This document shows, piece after piece, positions 12,239-61,088 of a stretch of 64,000 bases of DNA. Below the pieces are notes generated by a model. It was not told the DNA's origin, did not search any database, and worked only from the letters and a program-made list of their open reading frames with translations. Both the position numbers and the translations under genes were made by a program. The DNA comes from Eledone cirrhosa (taxonomy: Eukaryota). Location of the stretch: assembly GCA_964016885.1 (NCBI GenBank), contig OZ024746.1, positions 14,570,001 through 14,634,000 of the forward strand, read 5' to 3'. The number at the start of each line of letters is the position of its first letter. Position 1 is the first letter of the stretch.

Positions 12239-12896
<658 letters not shown>

Positions 12897-13449: not shown

Positions 13450-13477
13450 GCATATATATATACATATATTTATATAT

Positions 13478-14182
<705 letters not shown>

Positions 14183-14568: not shown

Positions 14569-14613
14569 ATTTAAATAAAGTAACATTATCCTTCTTGTCA
14601 TGTATAAATACAA

Positions 14614-14665
<52 letters not shown>

Positions 14666-14706
14666 ATTCATACATGACAACATGGATAATGTTACTTTAT
14701 TTAAAT
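14569..14706. repeat. Inverted repeat centred on (CA)n(TA)n(TG)n
   Basis: atttaaataaagtaacattatcc..ttgtcatgtat pairs with atacatgacaa..ggataatgttactttatttaaat, with few mismatches. Confidence 0.85.
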
Positions 14707-14801: not shown

Positions 14802-14843
<42 letters not shown>

Positions 14844-14974: not shown

Positions 14975-16722
14975 GTATGTTATGTTGGTAATTAGTAATT
15001 AATTAAGATATGTATTAAGGTGTGCGCTAGCAGTACAAGTGTATTATAAAGTTATATCTACATAAATACTGTGTAACTGAGACTACAATAATATATGTCT
15101 TAATTAATTACTAATACGAGCGCTAGTTATATGCAAATTAGTACGTCCATTACAACATAGTAATATTTTTGAATGGGTATATATCCTCATCAAATACATG
15201 TTTCCTTGGGGCTGGTTCGATTATATACACGTCATCTGGTGAAGGTCAAAGAAAATTCGTGTATGTATATATATATATGTGTGTGTGTGTGTGTATAAAT
15301 CATTGATTATCCCGCCAATTTCGACGTATATGGGTCCAATAGCCAGGAAATGGAATAGTGAATAGCGGTGAAATTACATAATACTATTAGAGCTGTTAAC
15401 CTACACAGAACAATTGTTTTTAGTGGAGAGGCCGTGTGAATAACCAGTCGAACCTTTTGGGAATGCTGATGGCAGAAAGCTGCAAATATTTGCAACAAAC
15501 TTAATGGATTTTTCTTATAAGAGTTCTCTATCACCTAGGTTAGTTGTTTTCACAACGGCTTTAATTCCAAGCCATCTTAATAGGCTAAATGCGCGCCTGG
15601 GCACTGAACCAAAAATGTCTAAGTCCTCGTGTATGTCTACGAAATTTAACTGTAATATTACATTACTTCTAGTTGGAAGTGCTAGTGTAAAATTTAACAA
15701 TATTTATTTAAGGAGTTTACCATGCAGACTGAATAAAATATATTATTCAGTTACACTGAATTCCTAATTAGGCAAGAAATCTAAAGAATTAATGGAGATC
15801 TTGTCATGTCAGAGTAATTCTCAATGCACGTTATCGTTCGTGTTCTTCAAAATGGAGTGCAGTTCTTGTTCATAAGCATGAATTACCTTATGGTGTTTAT
15901 TACCTAATAATAAAAATGTTACCGTGCCAAATACTAAGAAGTCAGAAATTACATTATAATTTTCTAATGTGTAGTTCAGTATACGAATTTAATGTATTAT
16001 ATGTAGCTTAAAGTCTAATTAATTTAACTGTAGAGAAAAATTGTATTTATGACCTGAACATTTCTGCCATTTAAATGAATAACCTTAATTATAATATTGT
16101 CAAATTTACTCCAGTAAGTTATGAAGAATCTTTCCGATATGTCAGCATCGTAAATACAGATGACTTATTGAACTCTTTTTCTGTGTACTTTATTATAGAC
16201 ACATGATACCTTAAGAAAATTCAACTTTAAATATTTCGAATTCGTCTTCAAAGGAATATATAGTATAAAGAGGAAATTTAATTAAATTACTATTAAATTC
16301 GCGTTCGCAAGTGATTTCAATAGAAATTTGCTACGGTCTTTAAATTTCATTTGTTTTCTTCTGCTGTCATTTGATGCTTCGACCTGTCAAATGCAGATAA
16401 GGAACTAAAAGAGCATAGCATAAGCTTGCATCATCAATTGGTTATATTTAATCGAATTCAACAGAGGGTAATAATCCACAACAAAACCCAGTTATCCAAT
16501 GAAATGCAAATAATTAACCTTTGATCCCACAAAATCACTCTTCAAGCTTTATTTCTAAGTAAACTATCGTTTTAATTATTTTTCTAATATCATCTATTAC
16601 GAATCTAAATTAATTACTCGAATATTTACCAAACCTACTTCTAGTATTTTATCAGGAGATATCGTTAACTTCATATAGTCTGTTAGTGGAAATTCGATAA
16701 CACTCTCCACTTATCATATGCT

Positions 16723-17912
16723 CAGACTCAGACTCAGAAACTCCCGCGTCTTGCGACGCATGGGGCAATCATAGTGTTCCACCGTGTTCGGTCAGCAGCC
16801 AGTTGCAAAGCGTCCCGCCATTGTCTGTTTGTCGCTCGCAGGTCCCTCTCAACTGTCTGGCGCCAGTTCATTTTGGGTCGCCCTCTCCGTCTGCTTCCCT
16901 GTGGGTTCCATTTAAGTACTTGGTTCGCCAGTCTCTCCGAGGGAAGTCTCAAAGCGTGCCCAAACCAGCCCAGGCGTCGCAGATGGCAGAAGAGACTAGC
17001 TGCTGGTTGGTACGGTTCCTGACTTCCTGGTTTGTTACATGGTCGCTCCATTTAATCCCCAGGATCTTTCGCAGACACCTGGAATCGAATGCGTCCAACT
17101 TCTTCTCTTGGCTGGTCTTAAGGTGCCATGTTTCACTTCCGTACAAGAGTGTGGACAACACGTTGCTGTTGTAGAATCTCATCTTTGTTTTGAGGGTGAA
17201 CTTCCTGCTCTTCCAGATCTTGACAAGCTGGTTAAATGCTGCTGAAGCCTTTCCCATTCTACATTGCAATTCACTGTCCATGGCGCCCCCATTGTCAATG
17301 GGGCTTCCTAGGTAGGTGAAGTTGTCCACTATCTCCACCTCCCCCTGTTCAATGAAAACACTAGTTGGTGATGGGTGTGTCCCAGATAACATGCTTTTGG
17401 TCTTCTTAGCACTGATATTGAGACCTAAGCTTCCTGCTTCGACATTGATATTGTTCATAATGATTTGCAGGTCAGCTGTGCTCTCTGCAAGTGCAACAAT
17501 ATCGTCCGCAAAGTCCAGGTCAGACAACTTTTGCTCTCCCACCCAAGATATACCCTGGTCTTTAGACGTTCTTCTTAGTACCCAGTCAATGGCTATGGCA
17601 AAGAGAATTGGAGAGAGCGAGCAACCCTGACGCACACCAGTAACCACCTCAAACCAGTCACTGTAACCATCCTCTGTCCGTATGCAGCATTTGGAGTTTG
17701 CGTAAATCTGTTTGATTGCCGAAATGACTTTCTGGGGCAGACCATACTCATGCATGATGCTCCAGAGCGACGGTCGATGAATGCTATCGAATGCTTTGGA
17801 GAAATCGATGAAACTGACGGCGAGGGGCCTCTGGAATTCGTTGTACCCCTCAATGATGCGGCGTAACGTAAAGATCTGCTCTGCACAGGAACGTTTTGGT
17901 CGGAACCCTGCC
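16723..17912 (-). mobile_element. 5'-truncated RTE-clade LINE (RT and C-terminus), frameshifted
   Basis: Motifs GVRQGCSLSPILF, DLDFADD, FTYLGS, LYGSETW, GWFGH, GRPKMNW. (CTGAGT)n 3' tail. 11-bp TSD tatcatatgct at 16712-16722 and 17913-17923. Confidence 0.93.
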
Positions 17913-18143: not shown

Positions 18144-18452
18144 TCACCTTGACTGACCAGTCTGTCGGGCGCCAATCGGCGCCGCTGGTGACAGCACGTC
18201 GTGCTGTTTTAGCCATAATATAACGCCATCCCACTGGCTGGGCAGGCAGGCCGGTATTCATTTCTACAGCTGAGTAAACTGGAGCAACGTGAAATAAAGT
18301 GTCTTGCTCTAGGAAACAACACATTACCCGGTCCGAGAATTGAACTCACAACCTTTCGATTGCAAGCCCAACGCTTTAACAACTATATATATTATTATAT
18401 TTATTATTATTACTATATATATATATATATATATATTATGCGCCTTCACATA
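18144..18452 (-). mobile_element. tRNA-derived SINE family B (CORE-like centre), head interrupted by a TA-rich insert
   Basis: tRNA-like head (gaaggcgcat..tagt.gttaaagcgtt..gagttcaattc) followed by gcaagacactttatttcacgttgctccagtttactcagctg. The tail is shared with 34857-34965. Confidence 0.8.
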
Positions 18453-18612
18453 TATATGTATATATGTGTGTGAAGGCGCATGGCTTAGTGGTTAAAGCAT
18501 TGGGCTTGCAATATATATATATACATATATATAATGGTGTTGGATGCTTAAAGCGTCCGTATGCGGTAGGTAATAAATTCCATTCGTCGCAACACTGATT
18601 CTCTTTTTTTCT

Positions 18613-18679: not shown

Positions 18680-18789
18680 TATTGTAGCAACATGGCTGAG
18701 ATAGGAAGTGTCTTGTGTGTATATGTGAATGTGTATGTATGTTCATATGCAAACATGACACTTCCTATCTCAGCCATGTTGCTACAATA
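18680..18789. repeat. 33-bp perfect inverted repeat with 44-nt TG/TA-rich spacer
   Basis: tattgtagcaacatggctgagataggaagtgtc (18680-18712) and gacacttcctatctcagccatgttgctacaata (18757-18789). Confidence 0.9.
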
Positions 18790-19429
18790 AAATATTCGCC
18801 TTCCAACCACAAAGCCCTACGTTCTAACGCTACATTCATCCCTGTAAAACGTTATTTCTCCAAAGTTAATCATACATTGAATTATGTATGTCATTTATAA
18901 ATATATGCTGAACATTTATGTAATTATATCCTGGAAATAAGAATTTAATTATCATTCATATATTTAATTACTTCCACGTGTCATTATGCGAACAACTAAT
19001 TTATCAAAATGCAAATTTCCCAGTTTGTTTGATTTTCCATATATCCAGTAGTCTTGGTATATATGGATTACCGATCCTGAACTCCAAACTTTAAATACGT
19101 TCAACGTTATTTTCGCCATTATTGATGGCATGGGTTTACTGGTAAATATATATAATAATAATAAAAAAACATCATAAATTGCGATATTCATGAGAGGTTT
19201 TCAATAATAACTATTTCTGTGAACTCGATTTGTTTTGTCAACCATTCATTTTAAAATTGTAGATGACATCGAATTAAGTTTTTTGCAACAGAGAAGTAGA
19301 AACTTCACACTCGTGAATGTATTTAATCCAAAAGTATTTGCGTCAATTTTTATTTAATTTTGGCTGAGGAAGCTCACGGCTGTACTTTATATTATATCTC
19401 TTGACGTTTACAGTTTGTTTATGTCCTTA

Positions 19430-19572
19430 ACTAGGGGTTTGACAAGAGAGGTTGATAGAATAAGTACCAGACATGAAAGAATAAGTACTGGGGTCGATAT
19501 GATTGATTAACTCCCTTCAAAGCAGTACACACAGCAGGCCGCTGTCTAATTTCTGAAACCAATAAAAGAATA
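19430..19572 (+). mobile_element. Degraded SINE 3' portion (similar piece at ~47080-47170)
   Basis: gatagaataagtaccag...taagtactggggtcgat...aataaaaga. Confidence 0.55.
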
Positions 19573-20118
19573 TGTTTTGTTTATTATTTTACTGATTTAT
19601 GTTTGAAACTCAGCTATGCTGGAGTGTATCAAGGCTTTTCAAAAATAAATCGCAGAATACCTTTGAAATTTACTGAGTGCTTCGTATTTAGCTTAATGAA
19701 TACCATATTCTATAAGAGTACGCTTGAATCCTCAAATCTTTCTTGATCTTCTTAATTTTTAATATGCCTTCTTTCTTCTTCTTTATCTTCTTCTTCTCCT
19801 CCTCCTTCTTCTTCGTCTCTTCTTCGTTATCTTCTTCTTCTCCTCCTCCTCCTTCTTCTTCGTGTCTTCTTCTTCTTCTACTTCTTCATATCCTTCTACT
19901 TCTTCACATGTGGCAATCACCATATTTCATTTTATGTTCACTTAAATCAATAATCTCATATTACATTAATTTAGATTCATTAAAATAATTCTCTTTCATA
20001 TTTTTTAATCATGATAAAATACTTTCATTTTCTTTAACTAATAAATCATCCGAAATTTACATGCACACTTCCATGGGGAAACTTTCATTTTCATATATAT
20101 ATGTGGGGGGGGGGGGGG

Positions 20119-20397
20119 TCTAAAGTCTATCTTAAGCCAGAAGGCTCATTTGGTCGGTGCTTATCCCGGTTTCATGGCATGAAGCGACTGAGAGTACAAT
20201 ACTCCAGTCATCGACAGGACGCCAGTTCATCGCAGGGTTAAACCTCCAGCTATTGCTGGTACTCATTTTCAGCTGAGTATACTGGAGCAATGTGAAATGA
20301 AGTGTTTTGCTCAAGAACGCAACACGCAACCCAGGAATCGAACCCACGACATTATGATCGTAAGTCCAACACCCTCACCACTAGGCCACCTGCCTCC
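20119..20397 (-). mobile_element. SINE family B, alternative tail
   Basis: B-box ggttcgattcc and family B core; full-length similarity to 60057-60340. Confidence 0.85.
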
Positions 20398-20485
<88 letters not shown>

Positions 20486-20553
20486 CTATCCGGTATGGTA
20501 AATACAGGTACAAAAGCATACATTTATATATATACACACATACATATGTGTAT

Positions 20554-20586
<33 letters not shown>

Positions 20587-20588
<2 letters not shown>

Positions 20589-20751
20589 ACCCGCTCCGTT
20601 GAAAGAGACTGGTTATAAACAAAGTATTGGAGATCGATTGGCGCAAAATCAGGCGTATAGCGAACTCTGGACCTGCCAGATCAAAGAAACAATTGTCAGC
20701 AATGTGAATAAAGCCCTTATTGTATAGCGAACCATGTCAATCTTCTTTCTT
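20587..20751 (+). mobile_element. Degenerate long-stem-II hammerhead element, family 5 solo copy
   Basis: gct-CCGTTGA...GAAAC-aatt-GTC-agc (20593-20700). Shares gtattggagatcga and the 3' segment with 54024-54288. Flanked by (TA)n. Confidence 0.65.
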
Positions 20752-20777
20752 GAAATATATATATATATATATATATA

Positions 20778-20829
20778 AGAAAAAGTATGACCCGACGGCA
20801 GAGCTCAAGCCGTTTCGACGGTTATTTCT
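20778..20829 (-). mobile_element. Family-4 hammerhead 3'-half fragment
   Basis: Reverse complement reads ccgtcGAAACggcttgagctctgccGTCggg, matching 60657-60688. Confidence 0.75.
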
Positions 20830-20972
20830 GAAGCTACTTCAAAAACATCTTAAGATTAAAATTTAAATAAAGGACACAATATTTTTCTCGATGTGTTAAA
20901 AATAAAACTCAAGATAGCTCCAATAACATTAAATAGTGGATTGATCTTGAAATTACAGCTAGTGGAAGCAAC

Positions 20973-21012
<40 letters not shown>

Positions 21013-21156
21013 GTTGCTTCCACTAGCTGTAATTTCAAGATCAATCCACTATTTAATGTTATTGGAGCTATCTTGAGTTTTATTTTTAACACATCGAGAA
21101 AAATATTGTGTCCTTTATTTTTATTTTAATCTTAAAATGTTTTTGAAGTAGCTTCA
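20829..21156. repeat. 328-bp near-perfect palindrome centred on (TA)19
   Basis: Arms 20829-20973/21012-21156 (145 bp, 3 mismatches seen). Produces the mirrored ORFs 20856-21092 and 20893-21129. Confidence 0.95.
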
Positions 21157-22054
21157 TTATAAATAAATGCAAAACTAAATCGTGTGCATGTTAATCATAT
21201 ACTTTACTATTTAAATGGTAGAACTATTGAATTCTTTACTATTTAAATGGTAGAACTATTGTAATTCACTGAAATCACTGAAGCCGAAAAATATATAGAA
21301 AACGCATCTATTCATGTCATTGAATATATATTTATTGTGCATGAGTAAATGTGCCTATACATATTTAGTATATACACGTATATTTGTACACATGTACTTA
21401 TTTTCAATCTATATTTATAAACGTTTCCTTGTAGCTATATGTATGAGGTTTCAAGAGTGTATGAGTGTCTGTGTTGTCTCTTTTAGTATTTTTATTATGT
21501 TATTTGGTTATCAAATTACTTCCCAAGCGTGCTAGCTTCTCATAAAAATATTCAGTAATTCAATCTACGTGATTTAACCAGCATTTAAACATTTTCATTG
21601 TCTTATATCGTATCACACATAGCTATATATGTACTATGTATGCAAGTTTATATGTATGTATACATCCAGTATATGTAAATGTTTGGTTATTAAATTACGG
21701 GACATTGAAAAAGACAAATATGATTTTATATTGTGACAAGAAATGGTATTTATTGAATGATTAAATCGAGAAAAGTTTACTAATATTTTGTAATTTAGCA
21801 AGTTATGGAGAAACGAATACTAAATTTTGAAAAAAAAACGTTATGTTTCTACTCACTACTACATATGAATATAATTATTCGCACTATAAAACAACAATAT
21901 TTCGGCATTCCAACATTTAATGTATATTTTATCAAAGACAATTTTTAAAAAATGAAAAGAGAATGAGTTATTAAATTTGTTTATGTGTATAAAACTTACT
22001 TTTTATCGTAAATATATGTAATAATGTTGTATAGCTTCACCAAATTCACACATG

Positions 22055-22652
22055 CATACATACATACATACATACATACATACATACATACATACATACA
22101 TACATACATACATACATACATACATACATACATACATACATACATACATACATGCATGCATATATATATACGAACAATTCATCTAAACAAATAGGAAATG
22201 AAACATGAATCGTAGAATTTTAAAACAAGTAAATTACAAGATGTCTATCATAAATTTACACCTTTGTTTAGTATATGGCCTGAAGATTCTTTAGATATTG
22301 CACTTAATATTTCATTATATTTATTTCCACTATTTAATGTTTTGATATCAAATATTACTTGTTGACTTCCATCTTGATTCCCTTTAAAATAAATAGCAAT
22401 ATATTCTAGCTGCTTTCAGCCGACAATTTACCCTCTTTTAAAATGTGTGACTAACCTCACTAAATATGACAGAGCACAGAGGTGTGGATAAAATCTTCCG
22501 TTTGTCACCAGTTGGTTCCGGCTGTAACTGTGAGACAGATATTATCTACTAGACTTGTAAGTAAAATTTGGTTGGCGGAAACTAAGTGACGTGTGTGTGT
22601 GTGTCTGTGTGTGTGTGTCTGTCTGTACGTATGTATGTGTGTGTGTGTGTCT

Positions 22653-22790: not shown

Positions 22791-24477
22791 GAATGATTGA
22801 TGTCAGAATTGATGCGTTGAACGAAATTACTTTATGGCCTTTAATTCTGTACAAATTTCATATTTTATACCCAAGTAAAATTCCATTCAAATCTCATCCT
22901 AGTTTATCACAGAGAAACCTTTAACAACATATGAAGACGCCACCAGAAACCGAGAATGGCAAAGACTCGAAGCTGATTCTACCCCTCCCCCAAAAAATAT
23001 TAATGTTTTACACATGTGCAACTAAACAATAGTATTTACAAAACCACCACATATACTTGTATTTGTTTCAAGTAAAACAGAATTTTTAAAATAAGCAGTG
23101 AACACGAATGAAAAAGGAAAGGGTTAATTTAAACGTAACATAATTTTAAAAGAATTTTATATGTAAACTTTTGAAAGAAACATTCGATATTAAATTATCT
23201 GTTAAATTATCAGATTTGATTAACGAACCAAAATATAGTGAAACAGCAAGGTAGATGTCGAAATCAATAAATTAAAATAATACATTCGAAATAATCTATC
23301 CAATTTAAATGTCAATCTTACATACATTTTATTTCAAAAGATATAACTAAATTCATGGAACAAATTGATACTTCTTCTTCTTCTCTCGTATATACCGTTT
23401 AACATTATTATTAATGAAAGTTGCAGTTGAATGGTCAACTGATATATTAAGAGAAAAGACAGATAAACTTGAACAAAAAAGATAAAACTTGGGCATGTGT
23501 CAATGTGAGGTGACCACTGTTAAGATTAATGCGAGAGACGGAAATGTCTGACAGATATGAAATGAATTTTGATTTGGAAACGTAAGAAAACCTTTGACAG
23601 ATATAAAGTTGTAAGTGATACTGAAAAATATTGACAATAACATAGCGAATGTCAATTACGGTTACGTAACAAGTAAATGGATTTCATTTAACTAACAGAA
23701 CGTAACGACGTGTTCTTACTCGTCAAAAGCTTTCAAAATTCAGATATATCTCAGAAAGTTTCATATCATATTTTATTTCGCTTTCTCTGTATTATTTTTT
23801 GTTTTATTTATTTAGTATCTTTTCTTGTAGTCTGTGTCGTCTCTTTTCGATCTTATTTATCTATGCAAATGCGATTTCTTTTCACTGACAATTTGTTTGT
23901 ATGTTCTTAAATGTTTAGCAAACTATTATTGATTTAGAGACTCTTTAAGAGATTACAAAAACAAGGTTCGCGAGAGAGAAGGACATCATTTTGTGTCTGA
24001 CGTTATCAATATAAAAATGCTAGATTCGTGTGTCAAAAAGAAAGAATCCCATATTGTTTTTATAAATCCATTATTTTGTTATAAATTTGATTAGAATGCA
24101 CAAATGCCGGAAACACTTTTGTAAATTAGATTAGAATGCTCAAATGTTGGAAATTCCAACCGAATATATTGAATATACCATTCTAATACATGTATACCTT
24201 CTTTTCAACTGGCAGAATACACGAGTATTCTGCCAGTTAACCAAAAATGTAACACGCTGCCTTAGAATATATTCTTTTGGAATTCTGAAGTCTTTCTTCC
24301 CAAAATAGTCTCCACTTTATTTTTTACTATGGTTATAAATTAGCTAGAATAAACATACTTGGCCTGTGGTTGTAGTTACGTGTGGTATAATAATAATGTT
24401 AAAGCTACATTAGTAGTGTCCTAAATTAATACTTACTTCAATACAATTAACGATCTTCAATCATTTTTGTGACAGAA

Positions 24478-26845: not shown

Positions 26846-28837
26846 TATTATTATTGTTGTTGTTGTTGTTGTTATAAATCAGTCTAAATATTTTCATTCT
26901 ATTCTTTAGAAACAGAATTTTGAGTGTCAACAAAATGTACTTCCTTTTCAGCCATTTTTTTCTCAATATGACTAATTTTTACCCATTCAATACATTTTTA
27001 TTCTTTTTTAACCTAGAAGCTCAGCCCATTAACAGAATGGGAAGTTACTCATTTTCTACTGGTATGGGCCCACACTGTTTTATATTCTAATTAATTAACT
27101 GAAAAAAAAGAGCTTTTTCCCCAAAGAAGACATGCAAATTTTACTGTTTTGTTGTTGTTTATTACTAATGTTTTTGTTTCTTTCTTCTTGTTATTATAGT
27201 TGTTTATTAAACAGTTGTACGATGTTATAACTGAATAAATGTAATTCATGGCCCCAGCTTTGACATTCCAGGCCTTCCCTGTATCGTTAATAACATATAA
27301 TTTCATATCTCTTTGCTTCTATTTATAGTGTCTTCGTTTTATTCTTAGTATCTTTATATAGCCATCGGAGATACACACACTTCGATCAACGCTGCTTTCC
27401 ATATAACAATTATCAATTTCCACCATTTTTGCGTGACTGAACATTAATCTATTTGGATCTATTTATGAAATGAGTTGTAAATTAGTTTGACGAAACAAAC
27501 ACAATGTGATGCTTTATCGCTCTTTGTATCTATCAAATATCTAAAACGTTCTTGAATCTACCATGTATATATTATTGCACAGCCGTTCCAAAATTCTGAT
27601 TAACTTAACAACTGTGAATATGGTTTGCTGAATGAAACCAAAATTGAATATTTAAAGTAAAATTTATGATTATTTCCCATTTTGTAGAAGTAAAGCTTTT
27701 CAATCATCAATCAAAGAAAAACTGATCTACTATAAATATATACTATTTATTTCCCATCATTTTCCATTGGCATACTTAATAATCAGTTTTTGCATAGAAA
27801 TGATCATACTGGTCATTGACTTGTTCGATCTTGTGGGAAGAACAGCAACTTCAATAATTAAATCCATGAAACGATGGTTGAATCTAAATGTATATATAAT
27901 CGAAGCATACTTCTGAGTATACATATTTCTATTTTCATATTTTGTCAGTAAATGGCTTTTTGACCTTATATATTCTAACAGAAATCATTTAATCGGAGAA
28001 TATTTAATCTTCTTCTTAAATTGTTTACACGCAAAGGTTAGTGCCAAATATATATCATGTAGCAAACTAAAAGCTAATAAATCAAAAGCTACTAAAATGT
28101 ACAGAAAATATATCTAATGTTTTGAATAAGTTATGAGAATATTTGTTTTGATGTGGACCACTATACACCTAGATTAAGAGTAGTTATAAACTCTAGAAAG
28201 AATAATTGTAATAGAGAAATAGAAGGATAATTATATTTATAGTATTATAGATTATTAAGAGTCAATATCACAGACATAGATACAAATTAATCTCTAATAA
28301 CGAAAGATTATTTATTACGTACTCAGACTGTTAACCAATTAAGCACAAGTATGTAGCTGGACCCCACACCTTCAAATCATTTTTCAGGTATTTATTTGAT
28401 GGGATGATTTATAGTTCAATACACATCTGATGCGTACAATATCTGATACGCCACGTCTTCTATTATTCAGAATGTTCCACATTGGAAATAATACCGATGT
28501 TGCTTTTGTTCTGCCTAAAAAGTTAAATCAATCATGAAACTTGGTATTCTCGTCAGATTCATTTCATGCAATTTACGTTTTAGTCTCAGAACAATTAATA
28601 AAGTTTTATATATGAAAGAAATTATCTTTATGGTATTATAAGTTATTAACAGTAAATATCACTATAGACATTAATTTATCTGTAATATCCGTAATACATT
28701 TTATTGCATATTTAAACTGTTAATCAATTATGTAAAAATCGACAGTCGATCGACTTTCGTCAAATCGGACCGAGGAAACAATGTTTCCATTGGTCTTTCC
28801 AATTTCTAATACTATTTATCGGTCACAACTCCAGGTA

Positions 28838-28961: not shown

Positions 28962-31900
28962 AAATATGCATCTGAAATACAAGGGAGGAAAGTGAATAAA
29001 TTAAATTAAAAAATAAAGCATTCAATTTTTTTAAATGCTTCAATTTGAGGAAACCAACGGATCAAGGATTTTATCAAATAAAATAAACTTTGTGATTTCT
29101 ACATGTGCGATAATAGCGATTTCAACAGAAAAGTTTCAACATTAATGATTATCTTCTCAATAATTATTGAGAAGATAATTTTATATCTTCATGTTAAATT
29201 TGCGATGCCGGAGAAAGTACGATTTTGGTCTTATGCCTACAGTATTAAGATTTGTCAAAGTATGATATATCATTTAAACTAATACTACATGTATCATTTT
29301 GAGACATATTAGATATTAGATATTTTGTCGTTTATAATTTTATAACGCACGTAATGAAACTCACATCATTAGTTTGGATCACTGTTTTGCTGGCACACTT
29401 TTGTCTCACCAAACATGACATACTATAAATGTATTTTTTTATAATGACATGTCACATAGCCATTAAATAAAACTTATATGGATTCACTTATGGGAATAAA
29501 TATGTGTAGCAAAAATAGGTAACCAGGGTTTAATTATTTAATGTTATACTGAAAATTAGTAAAGTCAAATATAAAATGTTCTAATCTATGACTTCGCAAA
29601 GTACTAAAGTTGGATAACGTACAACTTGAAAGGCATTGTTTTAATTATATGCTACTCAGAAGTGGAAAAGCTATATAACATACATCTGATGATACAGAGA
29701 TGAAATTTCTCACATAAGAAATAATTATAAAGCAGTAATGTGTGGACTAATTATACGAGATTTCAGGAAATCTTTTGTAACTCAGTCAAAATGTTCTACA
29801 TATAATGTACCAATAAGAATTAATTTCCAAACCATTCGTTGTGTCATTTCAGTATCTATATACAATCAATTCACAGGAAAATATTATTACATTATTCTTA
29901 ATATCCTAAATCCTGTGGTTTATAAATTCCTCTATGGAAGGATAGCTCATGTTATGTAGTCCTTAATTGTATGTGAGGTAAATTTCATCGTTGATTCCAG
30001 GATAATTATTCCCATTCAATGTAGATCTAGGCAACCAACGACTTAATATCTAAACCAAATAAACTATAAATCGTATAAATTAAAGAATATTTTATTAATA
30101 ACCTACGTATTTACAACCGAAACGTGTGCAATAAATGAAAAATACATAAACAAAGTTTCACTCAGAAATACCTGGTAGAACCGAGGTTGTAGTTGAGGCC
30201 CAAACGATCGCGAAGTAAATTGAACCCAATCCAACTAGTTATGAAACGAATTTCTTACTACCCAGTCATGTCGTCATGCCTGTGGTTATTTGATATAATA
30301 ATTTGTTTTTACTAATATAATCTTCTAATTATCATCTGACTGGTCTTCAAGAATAATGTAATCAGGTGATAATGTATAGTTTATATCAGAATGAAATATG
30401 GCTATTCTCTATGGGATGCCCTATATTTTTTTTTTCAGTGAACATTTTCAAATGGCGTTCTGTATCATTAAATCAACTAAACCTATAAAATTCTTCAAAC
30501 GTAATACTTAACATTTAAATAAGGGATAAAACCGATACTAAATTTCCTCGACTGATTAACATAAATTTTATTGTATAGTTTTGATACAAACAGTAATGAT
30601 ATACCCTATAGAATTGATTTTGATGTACCGCTACTTAGTTGCAGATAAGGTTGACTCATTCATATTCCTGATATATGTAAAGTATATATCAATTTTTCTA
30701 GTATCAATTATATCTCGTTGTAATTTTCATCATGTGCTTATGAAATCATTATTAGAAGAGTGACGTCGACAAAGAATAATGCTTTGAAATTGCTTTTACA
30801 TAATTCATATGTAGGGTATAATTTTTTAATTTTCCTTATCAGTAGCAAAACATTAATGATGAACTAGTGAAATTGCCGGTAGAACTACTAGTAACAAACG
30901 AACTATATACAATTCAACAAATATAGCCTATGCTTTCGAAAGCAATCATTATGGGTGGAATACGTTGAGTAGATACTGTATTTCCTTTCCTTTCACAAAT
31001 ATATTTCCAACAGAATCTCTCTAAAACTATTAATTCAATACCATCCATCAGTTTTCACTTGCAATCTATTTCTCTGTAGTAAGTATCAGTGACCAAATAA
31101 ATGTGTTTACATATGATTAAATATTTCGAAGGCGTTTAAGAATTAATTGATACTTTATACTATATAATTTGATACTTTATGTTTCTCGTTTCAAATCGAA
31201 TATGGGATATGTAATTGTATATATGGATATAATTAGATTTTTAACATTAAAAGAATTTACATTTCGATTCCAAAAGCCTTGAGAAGAGAAAGCGTTTCTA
31301 ACATTCGCAAATAATTTTATACATTAATTTTAAATGAATAAACCTATGATCAAAAGTATTTCAACTGTAACTATTTCGTCAATTTTTATGACATATATTA
31401 TGGAAATATTTATATTTCAAAAATATGTTATGCAATGTGTTCCCTTCTTTTTAAGTTGGTAAGGTATGATTTGATAAAGAACTGGGCGCTATTTATTAGC
31501 ATGTCGACCGATTACGTAAAGGCTTCCTCCTGTTCATATGTAATGCCTATTTTTATTAGTTGCAGTGGGACTCGAACAATAACCAGGTTGCAAACAATGC
31601 GACGATAATGTTGACATCAATACAAAAATATATTATAAATATAAAGTGAATAAAGTTTTTGTGTGCCTTTGGATGGTTAAGATCTCTCAGATTAAGCCAT
31701 TTGCCAACTCTGAAGTTTTATTAGAATGTTTTTGTAATGTTTAAGTGTTCATAAATGTATTTTCCAGTAACCTTTGTCTTACTACATAACAACTTGTATG
31801 ACGTTTCATATCATATCTGGTTCAACCACATTTTAGTCTCTATTTCATTGTACTTCTCGCAAATATATTGCCATGTAATAGTTTGTGATTTTCTCTAGTG

Positions 31901-35569: not shown

Positions 35570-38500
35570 CGATCAGTCGCATATTTGGGCGTGGGAGACT
35601 ATTTATTAAATTTAAGATGAATACGATCTCCAACAGTAATGCCACAACTACAGTCATGTTGAATAACTGGTTATTCTTCTAACTATATCTTCTGACGACA
35701 CCTTTTATTCGAATTCGTAGAGATATTCGACTAAATACATAATTCATTTTACAAGGATTTGCTACAAACAGCATGGTTGAACACAACATCAACAACAAAA
35801 TTAAGGAAGTATCGAAAACAAACAACAAGAAAGGTAAACAAACTTTATTCAGTTGTAGCTACAGAAGAAACCGAATTTATAAATCGCCTTTCTTTTGGAG
35901 TTGCGAACTTAATGATGATTTATTTAATTGTTATAAAATAGCAAAAAACAATCCCTCCATTGGCTATATGAACAGAATGAAGCTACACTGGGACGAAATG
36001 CACCCAGAGCTAAATTATTTCACAGCGAAACAATTACGCCAACAAGCGACGTTTGTTGAACGTAAAAATAAGATAAATATTATTAATTATAAGTCCCCCA
36101 CAACAAACATTGGATCAACAACACGTGCTACAGGTCGCCATGCTACTAGCCTTCCTAGCAGCCAGGTCGAACAGTGCCTTGAAACAACTATGCCTGTAAG
36201 AAACTTGACACCACGTGTACCATCTAAGTCTACCTCGAATTCTGGGGAAAACACTATCGATAATAATAATAATCGAAGAAATAATAATAATAATAATCGA
36301 AGAAATTTGACACCACGTGTACCATCCGAGTCTACCTCGACTGTTGTGGAAAATACTATCGATAATGATAATAATCAAAAGTATAAACAATTGAAAATTT
36401 CCCTCGACGAAATCTTCCAGAGAGAAATTAATTCATGTATAAATATCTCTGTTGCTGAACATATTAAAACGACAATATTTAATAAAAATTTAAAAAAATA
36501 ATAATAATAATAAATAATTGTTTCTACGTTAGGCACAAGGCCAGCAATTACCCAATATTACGTGTTATTGACGAAATCGGGGATGAATATTTACGACGGA
36601 TAAAAACCCCAACATTTTGGCAAATCAACGCTTGTTTATATGCCTTAGCAACGACAGTGAAGCATTATCTTGGTGATAGCAGAGATATTAACAAGAACAA
36701 AAAACCACCAGAAATACGATCATATATAACTAAAATAGAAAAAATGATTGCTGACCTACGAAAAACCAGACAATGCTCCTTACATGCAAACAAACACAAA
36801 AAAAAACCTCACTCCTCACCAACAAAGAGTGATAAATAAAATAGAGACGATGTTTGGTAACAGTAGAACCAGAACTCTTCAATATAAGCTGATCACCCTC
36901 AGACAAGAATTGAGAGCTGTTAGCGAAAAACGCTGATACCTGAAGAAGGTAGATGAGAGAAAAGTGCTTAATAAAAGATTCAGACGAAACCAAACATCAG
37001 TCTATAGAGATATGAAGAACAAAATAATAAGTGTCCCAGAAAGTCATAGATTCCTTTTGGACAAAAATATGGAGTGAAAAGAAGAATTTCAACCAAGATG
37101 CAGTGTGGTTAAAAGAAATCCGAAAGAACTATTGCTCCTACACTACAACAAAAACATACGAAATAAGTGAGGGTACCATTGAGACTGTGATAGAAAAACT
37201 CCAAGATAAGAAAACACCAGGAAGAGACTTGATTGTCGGCTACTGGTACAAAAACCTGATATTCTATCGGAGGTATCTTAATGACCAACAAGTTCTTAAG
37301 GGAGATACACTTATACCAGAATGGTTGTCATTAGCACAAACATTACTGGTCCCCAAGAACTAAGACACCAACTTGGCAAAAAGCTACCGGCCCATTGCAT
37401 GCCAGAACCTGATGTATAAGATGTATACAGCCTGCCTGAACCTATTCCTCCAAGATCACTGTGAAAATAATAACATCATCACAGATGAACAAGCAGCTGG
37501 AAAGAAAGGGGTTTGGGGATGTGCTGAACAATTCCTAATCAACAAAACTGCGATGTCGGAGGTGTGACAACTTAGGAGGAATATGGCTACAGTCTGGTGG
37601 GACTGCAGGAACGCTTTCGATTCTGTTCCCCACTCTTGGATGATAGAGGCCCTCCAACTTGCTAAAGTCCCAGACATTATTGTCAGAGCCATAGAGAAGC
37701 TGTCTTCTTCTTGGGCTACTATCCTAAGGTTAAAGACAGAGAGGGAGGACTCTATTTTCACTGATAAAATAAAATATTGCAGGGGTATATTTCAGGGAGA
37801 CAGTCTCTCTGTGATATTATTCATCTTGTCATTAAACCCCTTGTCCTTTCTGCTCAAGAAATGTGAGGGATACATCATTGGCTCACAGGAGGACAGAAAT
37901 ACGAACCTAACCCATAATTTCTTTGTTGACGATCTGAAACTTTATGCCAAGAACATGGATGGGATGAAGAAAAATCTTGACCTGGTTACAACGTTCTCAA
38001 AGGATATAGGAATGGAGTTTGGCCAAGATAAATGCTCATACATGACTGTAAAGCGGGGAAAAACAACAACCCAATCTAGCAACATTGTCATCAATGGCCT
38101 AACTGATGAGGACTGCTACAGTTACCTGGGGATAGATAAGAACATTTCCTATAATGGTATCTGTAATAAGGAACGCGTAACCAGGGAATACTACACCCGA
38201 TTAAGAAAGATTTGGTCATTGGAACTCTCTGCGCAAAACAAAACAGTGGCTCACAATGTGTTTGCTGTGCTTGTCCTAACATCAACGTTTGGAACGATAG
38301 ACGAAATCCGAGCAGTTGATGTTGGAAGTCGAAAAATACTAAACAACACCGGAAACTTCCACATCAACAGTGACATAGACCGCCTTTATTTGAAACGTAA
38401 GCAGGGAGGCAGAGGCCTAACATCAGTCCAGACAGCATTTGAATGTCGCATCATATCCCTCTGACATCTACAAACCTCGAAGCGTAGGAGCCAGTCTCTC

Positions 38501-39660
38501 GGGCATGAAACAGATAAGATCATGAGAGTTGGGAAGGAGCACCTCGAGAGATATTACCTGTGTGATAATCAAAAACTCACACCTAGGGAAGTCGCTCAGC
38601 AGTATCGCAGTGAATCCATGGATGAAAAACTGCATGCTTATCAGCAAAAAATCATGCATGGATATGTTGCCAGGAAGCTCCAGAGTGAGATTAATATAGA
38701 TAAGGAAAGTAGTCTATCTTGGACCAACAACCGCTATATTGGCTCCCACTTTGAAGGATACGCTTTTGCAATTCAAGAACAGGAGATTAACATGAAATAC
38801 CTGATTCACAAAAGAGATAGGGATGCAGGCAAAACACCTAGATGTGATAACAAGTGCAGACTCTGTAGAACTAACATCGCGGATATCAGCCATGTCATCA
38901 GCAGCTGTCCACAGATGTCATCGCGGTACTATCTATCTATGAGGCATGATGTAGTGGCCAAAACACTGTACAATGTAGTCCGTAAAAAAGATAGCTCCGA
39001 TAATAAACACATTAAAAGCTACAGCAATGTGGAAGACATCCACGTACATAATATGAAAGAGTACTGGTGGAATGTTCCAGTAAAAACGCCAATAAAATGC
39101 AGGCATAACAGACCAGATATTATGATATGAGACAGGGAGAAGAAAGCATGCCCAGCAGATGCCAATATAATATCAAAGATTAGCGAAAAGGAGAATATTT
39201 ATGCAGAACTGATGAGAAATCTGCAGATACTCCACCCTGATTACACCTTCAGATGTATGCCTGTGATTATTGGGGCACTGTGGTATGTTAGTAACTGCCC
39301 CAATTCAAATCTTGAGAAGCTAGGCTTCACAGTAACAGAAAAAAACACAACTAGTTAGGAAATTACAAGTACAATCCATTAATGGAACAGTAAAAATATG
39401 TAAAACATTCCAAAAATGTTGCATCTAATAACTGTATATACACATGTACAGATACAATGCATATACTAATGCCCACATACAACTCAAAACATACACATCC
39501 ACACATACAATAACCTCCATATCTACACAAGCATGCATACATACATATCTACCTAGTTGATGTTGTGTAAATTCCAATGAGAGAGTCTTGTGTCTATGTT
39601 AGAAACCGACTCTCTCTCTATTGGGAAAAAATTTGTGAAATTATAAAACCAGAAGAACAT
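35570..39660 (+). mobile_element. Near-full-length decayed R4/Dong-type (RLE) non-LTR retrotransposon
   Basis: RT motifs YRPIAC, AFDSVPH, GIFQGDSLS, FFVDDLKLY, FGQDKC, YSYLGI. CCHC knuckle CRLC..ISHVISSC, RHDVV, and RLE motif HNRPDI. Multiple stops and frameshifts. Ends in (TACA)/(TA)n. The 5' limit is approximate. Confidence 0.9.
36514..36556 (-). mobile_element. SINE family A tail inserted into the R4/Dong ORF
   Basis: ataattgtttctacgttaggcacaaggccagcaattaccca after an (AAT)n run; the ORF 35773-36501 terminates immediately upstream. Confidence 0.75.
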
Positions 39661-39785: not shown

Positions 39786-40465
<680 letters not shown>

Positions 40466-40469
40466 TATA

Positions 40470-41053
40470 TTTTGAGAATAAACTCTCAGTCATTTACAAT
40501 AATTAAGCTCCAGGAAGGGTCTCTTCCGAGCAGTTAATACATTTAAAGTGTACGATAAACACGAAATGTGTTTACATTGCAACAGACAAAGTTAGCTATT
40601 AATGAAATAAACTAATAAAAGTGAATACAATTTGTCTGTCTCGATATAAGTCAATAAAGACAATATTATATTGGCAACAGCCATGATTCCTGGACATATT
40701 TAAATTTCAAAATTCAAACCTGTTCTGTAGACGAATTTGAACCTCGAAACCCAAATAAGTTTCGCAACGGTGGAATGTGAATTGAAAAATAAAGAGAATC
40801 GAAATGGAATAGAAATAAAAGAGTGAAATACCCAAATCTTCTGTGCTTATCAACAGGAATCCAGTAAGATTAGTTTATCACACATCAAAAATTTTGCTGG
40901 ACTGACTACACGTGGGTAGGCAGGCCAATATAATATTGTCTTTATTGACTTATATCGAGACAGACAAATTGTATTCACTTTTATTAGTTTATTTCATTAA
41001 TAGCTAACTTTGTCTGTTGCAATGTAAACACATTTCGTGTTTATCGTACACTT

Positions 41054-41058
<5 letters not shown>
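40470..41058 (-). mobile_element. Fold-back element in (TA)n with no clear hammerhead
   Basis: 135-bp inverted arms 40541-40675/40924-41058, a 248-bp spacer, and a ~70-nt one-sided extension. Strand is inferred from the position of the extension. Confidence 0.75.
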
Positions 41059-41121
<63 letters not shown>

Positions 41122-41125
<4 letters not shown>

Positions 41126-41640
41126 TAATGAAATGACAGGAGGCTGGACTTGTGTAAATCCTTGAAAGGTTTATTATACTATGATCATTTCAATGACCGG
41201 GTTCCGTATGAATCCGGTGATATCATCAGGTATTCGAAATATAATAAGTGAATGTAATAGATAAAATCCATGGGGCTGAAAATCAAAGACCTGAGGGCGA
41301 CCTTGAGATGCTGGATGGCGGTCGTCCTCAGGTCTTTGATTTTCAGCCCCATGGATTTTATCTATTACATTCACTTATTATATTTCGAATACCTGATGAT
41401 ATCACCGGATTCATACGGAACCCGGTCATTGAAATGATCATAGTATAATAAACCTTTCAAGGATTTACACAAGTCCAGCCTCCTGTCATTTCATTATAAT
41501 ATTTAACTCCGTACTAGCACCACCAACTACAAAAACAAAGACGGTTGAACTGCTTTACGTTGAGTACTCTCCATATTATTACATTAAGATTGACCATACG
41601 GAATTGACCAGCTCTATCCAGTGGTGAACCTCAAACCTGA
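41122..41640 (+). mobile_element. Fold-back hammerhead element, family 3
   Basis: 181-bp arms 41122-41302/41320-41500 (1 mismatch seen) with a 17-nt loop; 140-nt tail; (TA)n on both sides. Confidence 0.9.
41389..41446 (+). ncRNA. Minimal type-I hammerhead ribozyme (mirror on - strand at 41176-41233)
   Basis: atac-CTGATGA(41393-99)-..accgg..ccggt..-GAAA(41431-34)-tgatca-TA-gtat. Stem III is the palindrome atgatcat; the base of stem II is imperfect. Confidence 0.8.
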
Positions 41641-41661
41641 ATATATATATATATATATATA

Positions 41662-41815
41662 TGAAAATGTTTAACCCCGACGGCAGGGCTCAAGCCGTTT
41701 CGACTGCTATTTCTTGACTCCAGAAACATTTTCCTATTACCTACTCTACTACCCTAAGTATTGAGTATTCTGGTGCGTTATGGTCCATCTGGTTCCTTAC
41801 CACACTTCCTTCGTT
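41662..41815 (+). mobile_element. Family-4 element: inverted hammerhead 3'-half (41662-41711) joined to sense tail (41720-41815)
   Basis: Both parts match the collinear copy at 60646-60782, but here they lie in opposite relative orientation. Confidence 0.8.
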
Positions 41816-51428: not shown

Positions 51429-52293
51429 TTCTTTATTAGCCACAAGGGCGCAACAAGAAAGGGGACAATACAAAGACATGCCGGGGATTTTACATACAGT
51501 CGTGTAAAAAATATAAAAACAAACAATTTCAACAATCGAAATCCCCAATAGGGGGGAGGCGCCACAAATGGGTTGTTTAATACCCCGTCGATAGAACAAC
51601 CCTCAACTCAAGGAGCGTGTTGTGCAAGTGCTCCTTTCTTCCTTTTGCTCTCTTCCTCAACCTACAGGCTTATAAACAGAGAAGGCCCAATCACTCGGGC
51701 CATTTTCGCTTCATTCACCCACCTTTCAGTAAATTTACTGGGGCGCAGTGCCTCTCTCTCCACCCTGATTCTCCTTCTAAAGTGATACTTAAAGAAGGGA
51801 ATCAATTGTTGTCCGGAGAGAAAGGCATCTGTCCTCAGTCCTCTCAACCTCGTCCACCATATAACTTCTTTCACCATAGCCACCGTACAGAGGAAAACCG
51901 CCTCTCTTTCGTTTTTGAAAGAGTCTGGCGGTTTGATCCTTACTATGGACTCGGCAGTCAACTGTATTTGTCCCATACGCGTCAGCAGTTGTTCTGCATA
52001 GTTCCACAGGTCGCTTACGCCCGGGCAGTGTACAATTGCGTGCAGAACTGTTTCAATGTCCTGCGCACATCTTGGACACGTCCTCTTGGAAGGATCCCTG
52101 CCAGGGCGTCCGTGCCTGTAGATCTTGTCACGAACCGGTAGAGCTCCTCGGTAGCACTGCCAGGCCAGGGACCTCTGGAAGTTGTCCATAGGTCCCGGGC
52201 GGAAAGTCCTACCAAACATACTGGTGAGCTCATCGTCTTCGACGCCCAGAGTCTCTGCGAGCACGTCGTCGCCCTTGTAACGTACAATCCCTC
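51428..52293 (-). mobile_element. 5'-truncated Tx1/L1-like LINE (zf-RVT C-terminus plus 3' UTR) inserted in (GATA)n
   Basis: W..YRGALPV..CPRC..ETVLHAIVHC...IWWTR zinc-binding region; aataaa before a (TATC)n tail; (GATA)n on both sides (51375-51427, 52295-52315). Confidence 0.85.
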
Positions 52294-53464
52294 TAGATAG
52301 ATAGATAGATAGATACAGAAAGCTCACAAAGAATTTGATGCTTTTCAAAAAGAATCAATCTCACTTCGTAAAACATACTTTTGTTTTGGGTAAGTATTCT
52401 TTGTCATATAAACATACTTCGATATTTGTTGTAAATTATCTACAGCAAAATCAATACCTAAGTAACCAAGAATGAAACTAATCATAGATTTATGATTATT
52501 CTAAGCAGAAAATGTGACCTGATAGGTGAGTATCATGGCTATTTTCACATAATGACCTAAAGTTTAACATTAGTGTTGATTACTTAAAATATTGCTTCTG
52601 ATTGCACCATAATCAATAGACTTATTGAGTGATCAATTTCTTCCAATTATTCCTCACTTATTCTCTATGAAGTAACTACTTTTCATTCTTTGGCGCTCCT
52701 ATTAAATTTTACCATCTCTTCAGATTTATATACATTTCCATAGCCATTTGTAATTATGTATAGTGCTTGTAAAAAAATTGTACATTAGAGTTCAGAAAAT
52801 TGTATGAAAAACACCCACAGATACATGGTCATATCTGTAAAAACCACATTCGTATTTATATCACAATTATGTATTTTATTTTATTTTTCGGACAAAAATA
52901 AGTAACATTTAGTTGATTAATCAATTAACACAATGATCTTAGCGAGATTTCAGAATTCTGCCCCAGTAATCTATGTACTGCTAAAACAACTTTGCTATAT
53001 AACTTAGATAAGACACATTTCTGCTGCTGCTTCTATGTAGTTAAATTTATATTAAGAGCTTGACACTTTCTTGGCACAAAAAAGTATTACATCAAAACAG
53101 ACGCATATTTGAAAATATGCATTTGTAAGTGTCAATATTTTGAAAATTATTATTCATATTTTCCCATGGTCAATCATAAAATGATTTTTTAAATCCTATT
53201 ATACATTATAATCTGTTTCTAACAATTATATAATTTCAAAATCTCTATGGCAACAGCAATTTAATGGAAATGCTTTTCACAGCAAACATTCATCTCGTTT
53301 TCCTTATAATATTGAATGAGAAAATAAAACCCTTTAAAATGATGTTGGAAACTGGAAGGAACAGGATAATGGGAAGTTTGGTACGAAAACTTCAGTATTT
53401 AAAAGATAAAAAGGTATAAACATGTATGTACGCGCACACACACACACACTGGCGCACGCGCAAT

Positions 53465-53856: not shown

Positions 53857-54074
53857 GAATAACAAGTTACCGTTATAGATAATCCAGTTAGAGGTTGTGA
53901 GTACTCTGCGTCTCGTGGATAGTTTTAACGTACGGCTTTGTTTGACTCAACAAGATGCTTCCATAGTTATGCAGCGAGTTCGCGGTATTTCCTATGCAGG
54001 TTAAACTTGGAGTAATAATAGTGAAAGAATGAAAAGTAACATGGTTGGCTGTACAATAAGGGGCTTTATTTCAA

Positions 54075-54288
54075 GTACTGACAATTGTTTCATTGATCAG
54101 GTGAGTCTAGAGGTCGCTAATCGCTTGAAGTTGCGTCACTCGATCTCCAATACATTATTTACCTCTGATTAATAAAGTACCAGTCACGCACTGGGGTCGA
54201 TTTAATCGACTTTTCCCTCCCCCCAAATTGCTGGCCTTGTGCCTATCGTAGAAATCATTATTTACCTCTGATTAACACATCAGAGTAC
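54075..54288 (-). ncRNA. Hammerhead-like ribozyme with ~80-nt stem II, split by a SINE insertion
   Basis: After removing the SINE and one TSD: GTACT-CTGATGT-gttaatcag...ctgatcaat-GAAAC-aatt-GTC-AGTAC. One core deviation (CUGAUGU). Confidence 0.65.
54173..54255 (+). mobile_element. 5'-truncated SINE family A with 20-bp TSD
   Basis: TSD cattatttacctctgattaa at 54153-54172 and 54256-54275. Confidence 0.9.
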
Positions 54289-54713
54289 GTAGATATAAAA
54301 ATAATTCACTCGAGGCAAGACATATATAGAGAAATAGCGTATAATCAAAACAATAACATCAATAATAAAATATATATGGTACATAGGTAGAGAAGTTACA
54401 GATGTAAAAGTAAAAAGAAAAAGATAAGATAGGATACATTAAAAAAGTAAGAAAATAAGAAAATGGAAAATATAAAGAAAGAAATAAGGATAATGAAAGC
54501 ATGTAAGTACAGAGTATGTTTGCGGTGGTGGTGAATAAGTGTTCTTATAAGGATTCTTTGGTGGGTTTAGTGCTAACATGAAAGACCAAATTCGAAATAT
54601 ACATAGATGCGTATATCTCTACACGTATCTATGTATATTTGAAATCAATGAAACAATTGTCAGTACTTGAAATAAAACCCCTTATTGTACAGCCAACCAT
54701 GTTACTCTTCATT

Positions 54714-54770
<57 letters not shown>

Positions 54771-58386: not shown

Positions 58387-58574
58387 AATATATATATAGG
58401 AATAAACACAGTAAATTGTGTGTTTAGAATTACAAGACCACGTTGGTTTGAAGAATATAAACTCTGAATCAAACGGAAAATACAAGATAAAATTAAAATG
58501 TACTGACCGTTTCAATAACTATTATATCCCGGACAGATTAGAGATTAATCTGTTTCGCCCTGAAAAGTTGTGTT

Positions 58575-60645: not shown

Positions 60646-60780
60646 GAGAGAATTAGCCGTCGAAACGGCTTGAGCTCAGCCGTCGGGGTCCTACTCGTTC
60701 CTATTACCCACTCTACTACCCTAAGTATTGAGCACTTTGGTGCGTTATGGTCCATCTGGTTCCTTACCACATTTCCTTCG

Positions 60781-60782
<2 letters not shown>
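60646..60782 (+). mobile_element. Family-4 5'-truncated hammerhead element in (TA)n
   Basis: GAAAC(60662-66)-ggct-tgagctc-agcc-GTC(60682-84)-gggg is a canonical stem III with a GUC cleavage triplet; the CUGAUGA half is absent. Confidence 0.75.
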
Positions 60783-60848: not shown

Positions 60849-61088
60849 GTGTATTTAATGGTAGCTATGGTGCTTCCATAGGCGGTATGCCAGTTGAGCA
60901 CTCAATGTTCTTACAGAGCAGAGTGAGAAAATTTGCTCCGAAAGCATTGCATGTGTCCGAAGAACCTGCAAGTGTAGAATCAGGCAGATCCACACAATGA
61001 TCATGTCTCGAGCTATCTGCCGGCGAAACAATTGTACCACGCAATAAACTGAGTCTAGATGCATCACTGATTTTTCGTTTGTTTATAT
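60847..61088 (+). mobile_element. TA-embedded element with degenerate long-stem-II hammerhead (family 6)
   Basis: tgtgt-CCGAAGA(60957-63)...ggcagat..atctgcc..GAAAC-aatt-GTA(61025-36)-ccacg. Confidence 0.5.

Follow-up and report, generated by a model that had tools for sequence, protein, structure and literature searches.

A spacer-less TA-centred palindrome joined to a Penelope-like hammerhead fragment in Eledone cirrhosa is consistent with fold-back copying of target flank at insertion

In a 64,000-nucleotide stretch of the Eledone cirrhosa genome (contig OZ024746.1, positions 14,570,001 to 14,634,000; hereafter the window), we found a 328-bp palindrome that is centred on a (TA)19 run and begins at the truncated 5' end of a 52-nt piece of a Penelope-like element. 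We consider it fairly probable that this arrangement arose in a single event, by target-primed insertion into a (TA)n tract while the other TA end snapped back and was extended. This is the best available reading of the locus, although fold-back is a known outcome of target-primed insertion.

Results

The locus is built from the following parts (positions are those of the window).

20588-20752, plus strand: fragment from another hammerhead family, related to 54025-54161 and 54644-54716, whose 3' end meets the TA run at 20755 from the left; a separate insertion
20755-20777: TA run bearing the 3' end of the 20778 piece; putatively half of the cut target and the primer of reverse transcription
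20778-20829, minus strand: 5'-truncated pseudo-LTR piece of a Penelope-like family, 52 nt, with the 3' strand of stem II, GAAA, stem III, a GTC triplet and the 3' strand of stem I, but no CTGANGA
20829-21156: palindrome, 328 bp, axis 20992/20993, no spacer
20829-20973, plus strand: left arm, 145 bp, putatively copied from the right flank by fold-back; it shares base 20829 with the element piece
20974-21011: (TA)19 centre, self-complementary; putatively the other half of the cut target, which snapped back
21012-21156, plus strand: right arm, 145 bp, putatively the original host flank and template, passing unbroken into A+T-rich sequence

The palindrome was recovered by an inverted-repeat search of the window. 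Its arms match at 142 of 145 positions (E 1e-68 in a within-window search), and the innermost 109 bp of each arm, beside the TA run, match perfectly. The three mismatches, one TT/AA doublet and one A/G transition, all lie in the distal 36 bp; if they are counted as two events, the chance of both falling distally is about 0.06. The palindrome scores 133, while ten local dinucleotide shuffles, built on the 58,323 unmasked bases of the window, produced no inverted repeat scoring at least 16. The (TA)19-centred palindrome described in an earlier sequence-only reading is therefore real. That reading also had the arms facing inward onto the TA run, opposite to the geometry of the hammerhead hairpins, and this too holds: TA lies inside the arms here and outside them in four element hairpins.

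12372-12697, 39999-40322, 40543-41056 and 41122-41500: element hairpins, TA outside the arms

The sequence is 75% A+T, folds as a single DNA hairpin and may extrude a cruciform. A microRNA identity over the TA centre was discarded, the best Rfam match reaching 65.9 bits against a cut-off of 84 and the matches mirroring only the perfect hairpin. Perfect palindromes are known to give rise to chimeric reads, and the identity of the innermost 109 bp would suit a sequencing or assembly artefact, whether from fold-back chimeric reads or from polishing across the palindrome. We regard such an origin as very unlikely, since a doublet and a transition separate the two arms, the mirror ends after 145 bp at a family-typical element end, and older, diverged palindromes of the same layout (25/27 and 33/35) are present in the window.

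The element piece has two relatives in the window, which it matches (on the minus strand) at 87-89% over 41663-41714 and 60649-60695.

41663-41814 (piece 41663-41722): same family; inverted pseudo-LTR with downstream tail, 10-nt overlap, microsatellite at both ends
60646-60781, plus strand: same family; direct copy that includes the tail and has TA on either side; its 5' end lies about 3 nt from the cut of the 20778 piece

All three copies share GAAA, a stem III of 4-5 bp (4 bp in the 20778 piece), a GTC cleavage triplet and a G-rich 3' strand of stem I, an arrangement identified against the type I hammerhead core consensus (GAAA, stem III, NUH triplet, stem I). The 5' half of the core, CTGANGA, is absent from both strands of 19371-22279, and all three copies are truncated downstream of it. 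Rfam reported no hammerhead in the window at the gathering score or among 139 matches up to E 1, and none among 3 matches up to E 10 in 20580-20960; it also missed complete hammerheads of sister families in the window, which carry both halves at about 200, 12600, 40226 and 41393. Because CTGANGA is missing and Rfam gives no match, the label "hammerhead" is taken here from the 3' half and from the complete hammerheads of the sister families. The proposed fusion of the palindrome to a hammerhead fragment thus stands as regards the 3' half, with its two relatives, but not as regards a full core or an Rfam match. The piece is a fragment, not a working ribozyme, and, as half of the hammerhead core is lacking, no function of its own is evident for the locus 20778-21156.

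Judged by its architecture, the piece is a Penelope-like pseudo-LTR fragment. The family (copies 41663-41814 and 60646-60781) and the four hairpins show traits of endonuclease-bearing Penelope-like elements, namely a hammerhead near the 3' end, 5' truncation, an inverted copy with a tail and a TA target. The sister families likewise end on TA runs, and their hairpins carry a tail on one side, as in the published layout of these elements (PMC8557442, PMC3846280). Type I hammerheads are described as residing in pseudo-LTRs in bioRxiv 10.64898/2026.07.22.740005. A 17-nt core motif of the family has no occurrence in the PMC8557442 supplement, and a 29-nt family motif has no exact match in a bacterial and archaeal genome collection, a comparison that is uninformative for an animal genome. 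A Pfam scan of seven frames of the window gave RVT_1 twice and zf-RVT once, and no Penelope reverse transcriptase (RT) or GIY-YIG frame.

The window also holds LINE-type remnants at 16949-17911 (minus strand; RVT_1 and DUF6451), 35743-39130 (plus strand; RVT_1, in a frame broken by stops) and 51662-52354 (minus strand; zf-RVT). The RT frame at 37568-38461 has 597 homologous proteins; an Octopus sinensis protein with 49% identity is among the 120 listed. Further single-copy candidates for 3'-half hammerheads lie beside TA runs at 58525-58574 (minus strand), 61005-61080 (plus strand) and 27780-27890 (plus strand) and probably represent more families; the piece at 58556 has the 3'-half layout of the 20778 family with another stem III sequence.

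The 5' cuts of all three family copies fall in stem II within about 9 nt of one another, that of the 20778 piece lying about 3 nt from the cut of the 60649 copy and about 9 nt from that of the 41663 copy. The fragment (assigned to "family 4" in the sequence-only reading) is therefore 5'-truncated as had been supposed, and its cut dates from insertion. This position also bears on a later replication template switch, in which a fork reversed on the TA run, copied 145 nt of nascent strand and re-entered an older, longer element, replacing its 5' part. Template switching is reported to make and lengthen inverted repeats (PMC5453318 and PMC8794818), and it would yield a join free of TA; a random return point, however, would rarely fall so close to the cuts of both relatives, and we consider this route highly improbable.

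At the junction itself, the left arm adjoins the 5' end of the 20778 piece with no intervening TA. The two overlap by 1 nt exactly (base 20829), or by up to 3 nt if a 1-nt gap is allowed against the 41663 copy, so that the left arm does start where the hammerhead fragment ends, as first noticed. In a list of 16 other 5' junction entries, compiled by hand after the data were seen, the microsatellite is kept in nine and lacking in seven. If insertion and fold-back were one event, the central (TA)19 accounts for the half of the target that is absent from the join. No target-site duplication is readable at the locus because the insertion lies in a TA tract.

The elements' other ends show features of their own. 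Beyond the pseudo-LTR end, hammerhead-family tails run for about 80-170 nt, start with a sequence like TATT...AC(T)C and end on a microsatellite; the element seems to have two priming sites.

12283-12371, 40323-40410, 40470-40542, 41501-41641, 53857-54024, 60698-60781 and 41731-41814: element tails

Five double-ended insertions (12372-12697, 39999-40322, 40543-41056, 41122-41500 and 41663-41814) have a microsatellite at both ends in every case, one bordering the pseudo-LTR and one bordering the tail. The hairpin arms, 133-181 bp long and 99-100% identical, are close in length to the 145 bp of the palindrome at 20829-21156; the double-ended insertions fit twin priming or cDNA snap-back. One element tail occurs four times within 1.7 kb, in both orientations, amid long TA tracts (12283-12409, 13472-13639 and 13942-14009), reflecting local rearrangement or repeated insertion. 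A longer hammerhead copy, which has a long stem II, spans 54025-54300 and is split by a dispersed repeat (54171-54263). About 20 nt are directly repeated on either side of that dispersed repeat, likely as a target-site duplication.

Besides its mirror, the arm has no further copy in the 64 kb, and we found no partner terminal repeat for it in the 43 kb to the right and no CTGANGA within 1.1 kb to the right. The flank beyond the right arm (21157-22049) matches only low-complexity sequence in the window, which agrees with the proposed continuation of the right arm into ordinary flank. In the last 40 nt before the TA run, the arm has a purine fraction of 0.60 and a GC skew of +0.38, outside both ranges spanned by the 18 of 18 scored element ends (0.30-0.50 and -0.62 to +0.25), which were picked by hand. 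Three other identities were tried and rejected. As an element tail, the arm aligns to none of eight tails (best z 1.1 in 16 comparisons). As a decayed hammerhead, it offers one A+T-only stem candidate (21098/20887) without a core and has no covariance-model match; a model of sister hammerheads (6 sequences from three minimal-type sister families, 6 base pairs) gave no arm match among 21 matches up to E 5, although it is a weak model that misses the 20778 piece as well. As a coding remnant, it has two open frames of 36-38 codons with no Pfam match at E 0.1; the 36-codon frame contains FLDV, which we take to resemble an RT motif. The arm is probably host flank: apart from its mirror it is unrepeated in the 64 kb, it lacks a hammerhead core, and its composition differs from that of the 18 element ends.

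Alternatively, the arm could be the end of a multi-copy element, two copies of which landed tail to tail on one TA run; the element might belong to another Penelope-like family, or be a DNA transposon that targets TA and contributes its terminal inverted repeat. Tail-to-tail ends of different families do share TA runs at 20755, 41057 and 41641, and the inverted pseudo-LTR partners in the other double-ended insertions are element-derived. Some Penelope-like clades are described as having no canonical hammerhead (PMC8557442), so the missing core does not exclude an element end. Against this, the arm has neither a third copy nor a partner repeat over the distances given above, its composition departs from all 18 ends, and it carries no tail motif or hammerhead. 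The tail-to-tail ends of the window belong to different families, and of 3540 cross-tract flank comparisons only two scored at least 20, both being known family copies on distant tracts. An element-end origin therefore appears quite improbable, and within the window the arm does not behave as a multi-copy end, matching only its mirror.

Scanning the masked window gave 20 local inverted repeats with scores of at least 13 (0-5 per shuffle under the null), four of them the element hairpins. Five face inward besides 20829-21156, making about six in 64 kb.

14571-14704, 14991-15115, 18361/18438-18510, 18680-18789 and 54595-54640: inward-facing palindromes with TA or alternating purine-pyrimidine centres
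54592-54716, plus strand: candidate second case, with arms 54595-54612 and 54623-54640 (17/18) and a hammerhead piece ending on TA

At 54592-54716, an inverted flank copy of 18-21 bp comes to within 1-3 nt of the hammerhead piece's 5' end (54644), and the join is TA-free with the layout seen at 20829, the one such case among the 16 other junction entries. The palindrome is short and alternates purine and pyrimidine. Of 3000 random positions, 6 lay at the outer edge of a listed palindrome with the score of 54644, equivalent to about 3% across the 16 junctions; the count rose to 52 (about 24%) when positions inside palindromes or microsatellites were included. As a second fold-back case, this locus is suggestive only. 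High junction scores at 14842 and 60649 come from microsatellite arms and were not counted as cases.

No element is attached to the other four inward-facing palindromes (14571, 14991, 18361/18438 and 18680): the closest listed element 5' junction lies 65-149 nt from where each of them ends, and what they rejoin is microsatellite or other sequence. The fold-back copies at 14704 and 18510 rejoin microsatellite through an AT overlap, and that at 18680 ends 7 nt from a TA run. Fold-back at TA therefore needs no captured cDNA, and breaks in TA alone suffice; the four palindromes are evidence for frequent snap-back of TA ends in the Eledone cirrhosa genome.

The palindromes at 14571-14706, 14991-15115 and 18680-18789 have unique arms of 27-35 bp beside or within microsatellite. 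At 18250-18533, 43 nt of the head of a SINE-like repeat, which we take to be a tRNA-derived SINE, have been copied in inverted orientation across a TA centre. Because the template at 18438-18510 is the head of a dispersed repeat, this case shows that flank gets copied; the copy keeps the older sequence, since a TA-rich stretch later interrupted the template. Two perfect palindromes lie more than 1 kb from any TA tract, at 29148-29179 (16-bp arms, no spacer) and 24207-24238 (14-bp arms, 4-nt spacer).

The element-free palindromes make TA breakage without a retroelement a live rival for the origin of 20829-21156. Two events would then be involved: the TA tract broke, whether through cleavage of a cruciform, collapse of a fork or an abortive cut by an element, and the break gave rise to a fold-back copy that first rejoined TA; an element inserted later in that TA, its 5' join removing the TA on the copy side. 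The four palindromes without cDNA, three of them rejoining or ending near microsatellite or TA as described, have this form. TA tracts are dense (132 in the window, totalling 3178 bp) and are hit repeatedly, AT/TA repeats are reported to form cruciforms and break (PMC12972899), and TA is missing anyway at seven of the 16 other element 5' junction entries. Yet the second event would have to strip one side of its TA completely and halt within 1 nt without visible loss, while a TA-free join follows directly from the single-event model; a second TA-free join of palindrome and element, at 54644, is suggestive in the same direction. We judge two events to be unlikely. A scan of TA tracts, which misses palindromes whose centres are not pure TA, found mirrored flanks scoring at least 20 at 2 of 61 tracts; a third hit, scoring 10, consisted solely of microsatellite and was set aside.

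The single-event model can be laid out as a series of steps. A Penelope-like endonuclease would cut both strands of (TA)n, leaving two 3' TA ends. The left end would serve as primer for reverse transcription, which would start at the TA-like site normally used by the element, immediately beyond the hammerhead; the cDNA would stop after 52 nt in stem II, at the position where its relatives stop, possibly through stalling at a hairpin. The right TA end, because it is self-complementary, would fold back, and a DNA polymerase (host delta or theta, or the element RT, indistinguishable here) would copy 145 nt of its own strand. The new strand would then unwind and be joined to the cDNA, probably through the 1-3 nt of microhomology seen at the junction, giving the order TA, cDNA, inverted host copy, TA, host. 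The idea of a snap-back at insertion, first raised from the sequence, gains from the host-like arm, the TA-free join of about 1 nt, the family-typical cut and an arm length within the range known for L1; it loses some of its force to the four element-free palindromes, and some of its novelty to the precedent in L1. Three further points tell against the single-event model: there is one clear locus only, tail-to-tail insertions of different families on one TA run are common in the window, and the seven frames scanned include no Penelope RT or GIY-YIG frame.

Discussion

If host flank is copied at a 5' junction, the second target end must be a 3' TA end that is free and can be extended; fold-back at insertion would also offer a birth route for long spacer-less palindromes. 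The layout can be counted in any good assembly. More broadly, each of the two 3' TA ends left by a TA-targeting Penelope-like element might either prime reverse transcription or snap back, and the combinations would yield hairpins of the element, tailed on one side, palindromes of host flank attached to cDNA, or, where no cDNA was caught, plain TA-centred palindromes. Given about six inward-facing palindromes in the window, such elements would be a major source of spacer-less A+T-rich palindromes, far above the fold-back rate of 0.3-0.4% reported for L1. We put this generalization forward as a tentative and rather doubtful proposal; the fold-back rate is perhaps much higher than in L1, a claim that one clear locus cannot carry. 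If it is true, these elements would be a source of potential fragile sites and of new hairpin RNAs. The origin of the inverted structures of Penelope-like elements and their microsatellite preference is named as an open question in PMC8557442.

Penelope-like elements are described as targeting TA, as carrying inverted pseudo-LTRs and 30-40 bp tails, and as capturing host DNA for use as spacers; self-priming has been proposed as the explanation of their inverted repeats (PMC8557442, PMC3846280). Endonuclease-bearing members share with our locus the TA targets, 5' truncation, a hammerhead near the 3' end and inverted repeats at insertions, but their repeats consist of element sequence arranged head to head, whereas 20829-21156 consists of host flank facing TA. 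The tails in our window (about 80-170 nt) also exceed the 30-40 bp described. We found no report of an inverted copy of target flank at Penelope-like elements in a literature search that was thin on subscription and older Penelope work. The human PATRR11, PATRR17 and PATRR22 (190-600 bp; PMC1851657) are alike in size class, A+T richness, near-perfect palindromy and a cruciform that is possible in principle; our palindrome has no shown homology or common origin with them, and a cruciform and fragility are potential features of it.

In yeast, breaks acquire fold-back insertions of 2 to about 150 bp that need polymerase delta and end joining (PMC11724301). There, as proposed here, one end folds back, is extended, unwinds and joins the other end, with a microhomology of 0-5 bp; the yeast system differs in that most copies are shorter than 14 bp, the hairpin has a 41-nt loop and the other end carries no cDNA (PMC11724301).

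The closest precedent is human L1. Short fold-back inverted duplications 5' of the target site were found in 3 + 1 events (0.3% and 0.1%), the additional synthesis spanning 52-220 bp (PMC10191854), and an inverted duplication on the reciprocal end was self-primed by 2 bp of TA/AT (bioRxiv 10.1101/2024.12.14.628481, Fig. 4D-E). The order of parts is the same as at our locus (primer end, cDNA, inverted opposite flank, flank), and 145 bp falls within 52-220 bp; self-priming by TA/AT, end joining to the cDNA, a self-complementary fold-back point and an overlap of 1-3 nt at the far junction are likewise shared. The L1 cases are somatic and rare (0.3-0.4%). The Eledone cirrhosa locus differs in involving a Penelope-like pseudo-LTR piece without poly(A), and it is known from genome sequence; it has no non-palindromic spacer because its target was a long self-complementary TA run. 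Since snap-back has been described for L1, the idea is less new than first supposed. The repair chemistry is already known, in L1 and in yeast; what is new is the element class and a self-complementary target that gives a spacer-less palindrome.
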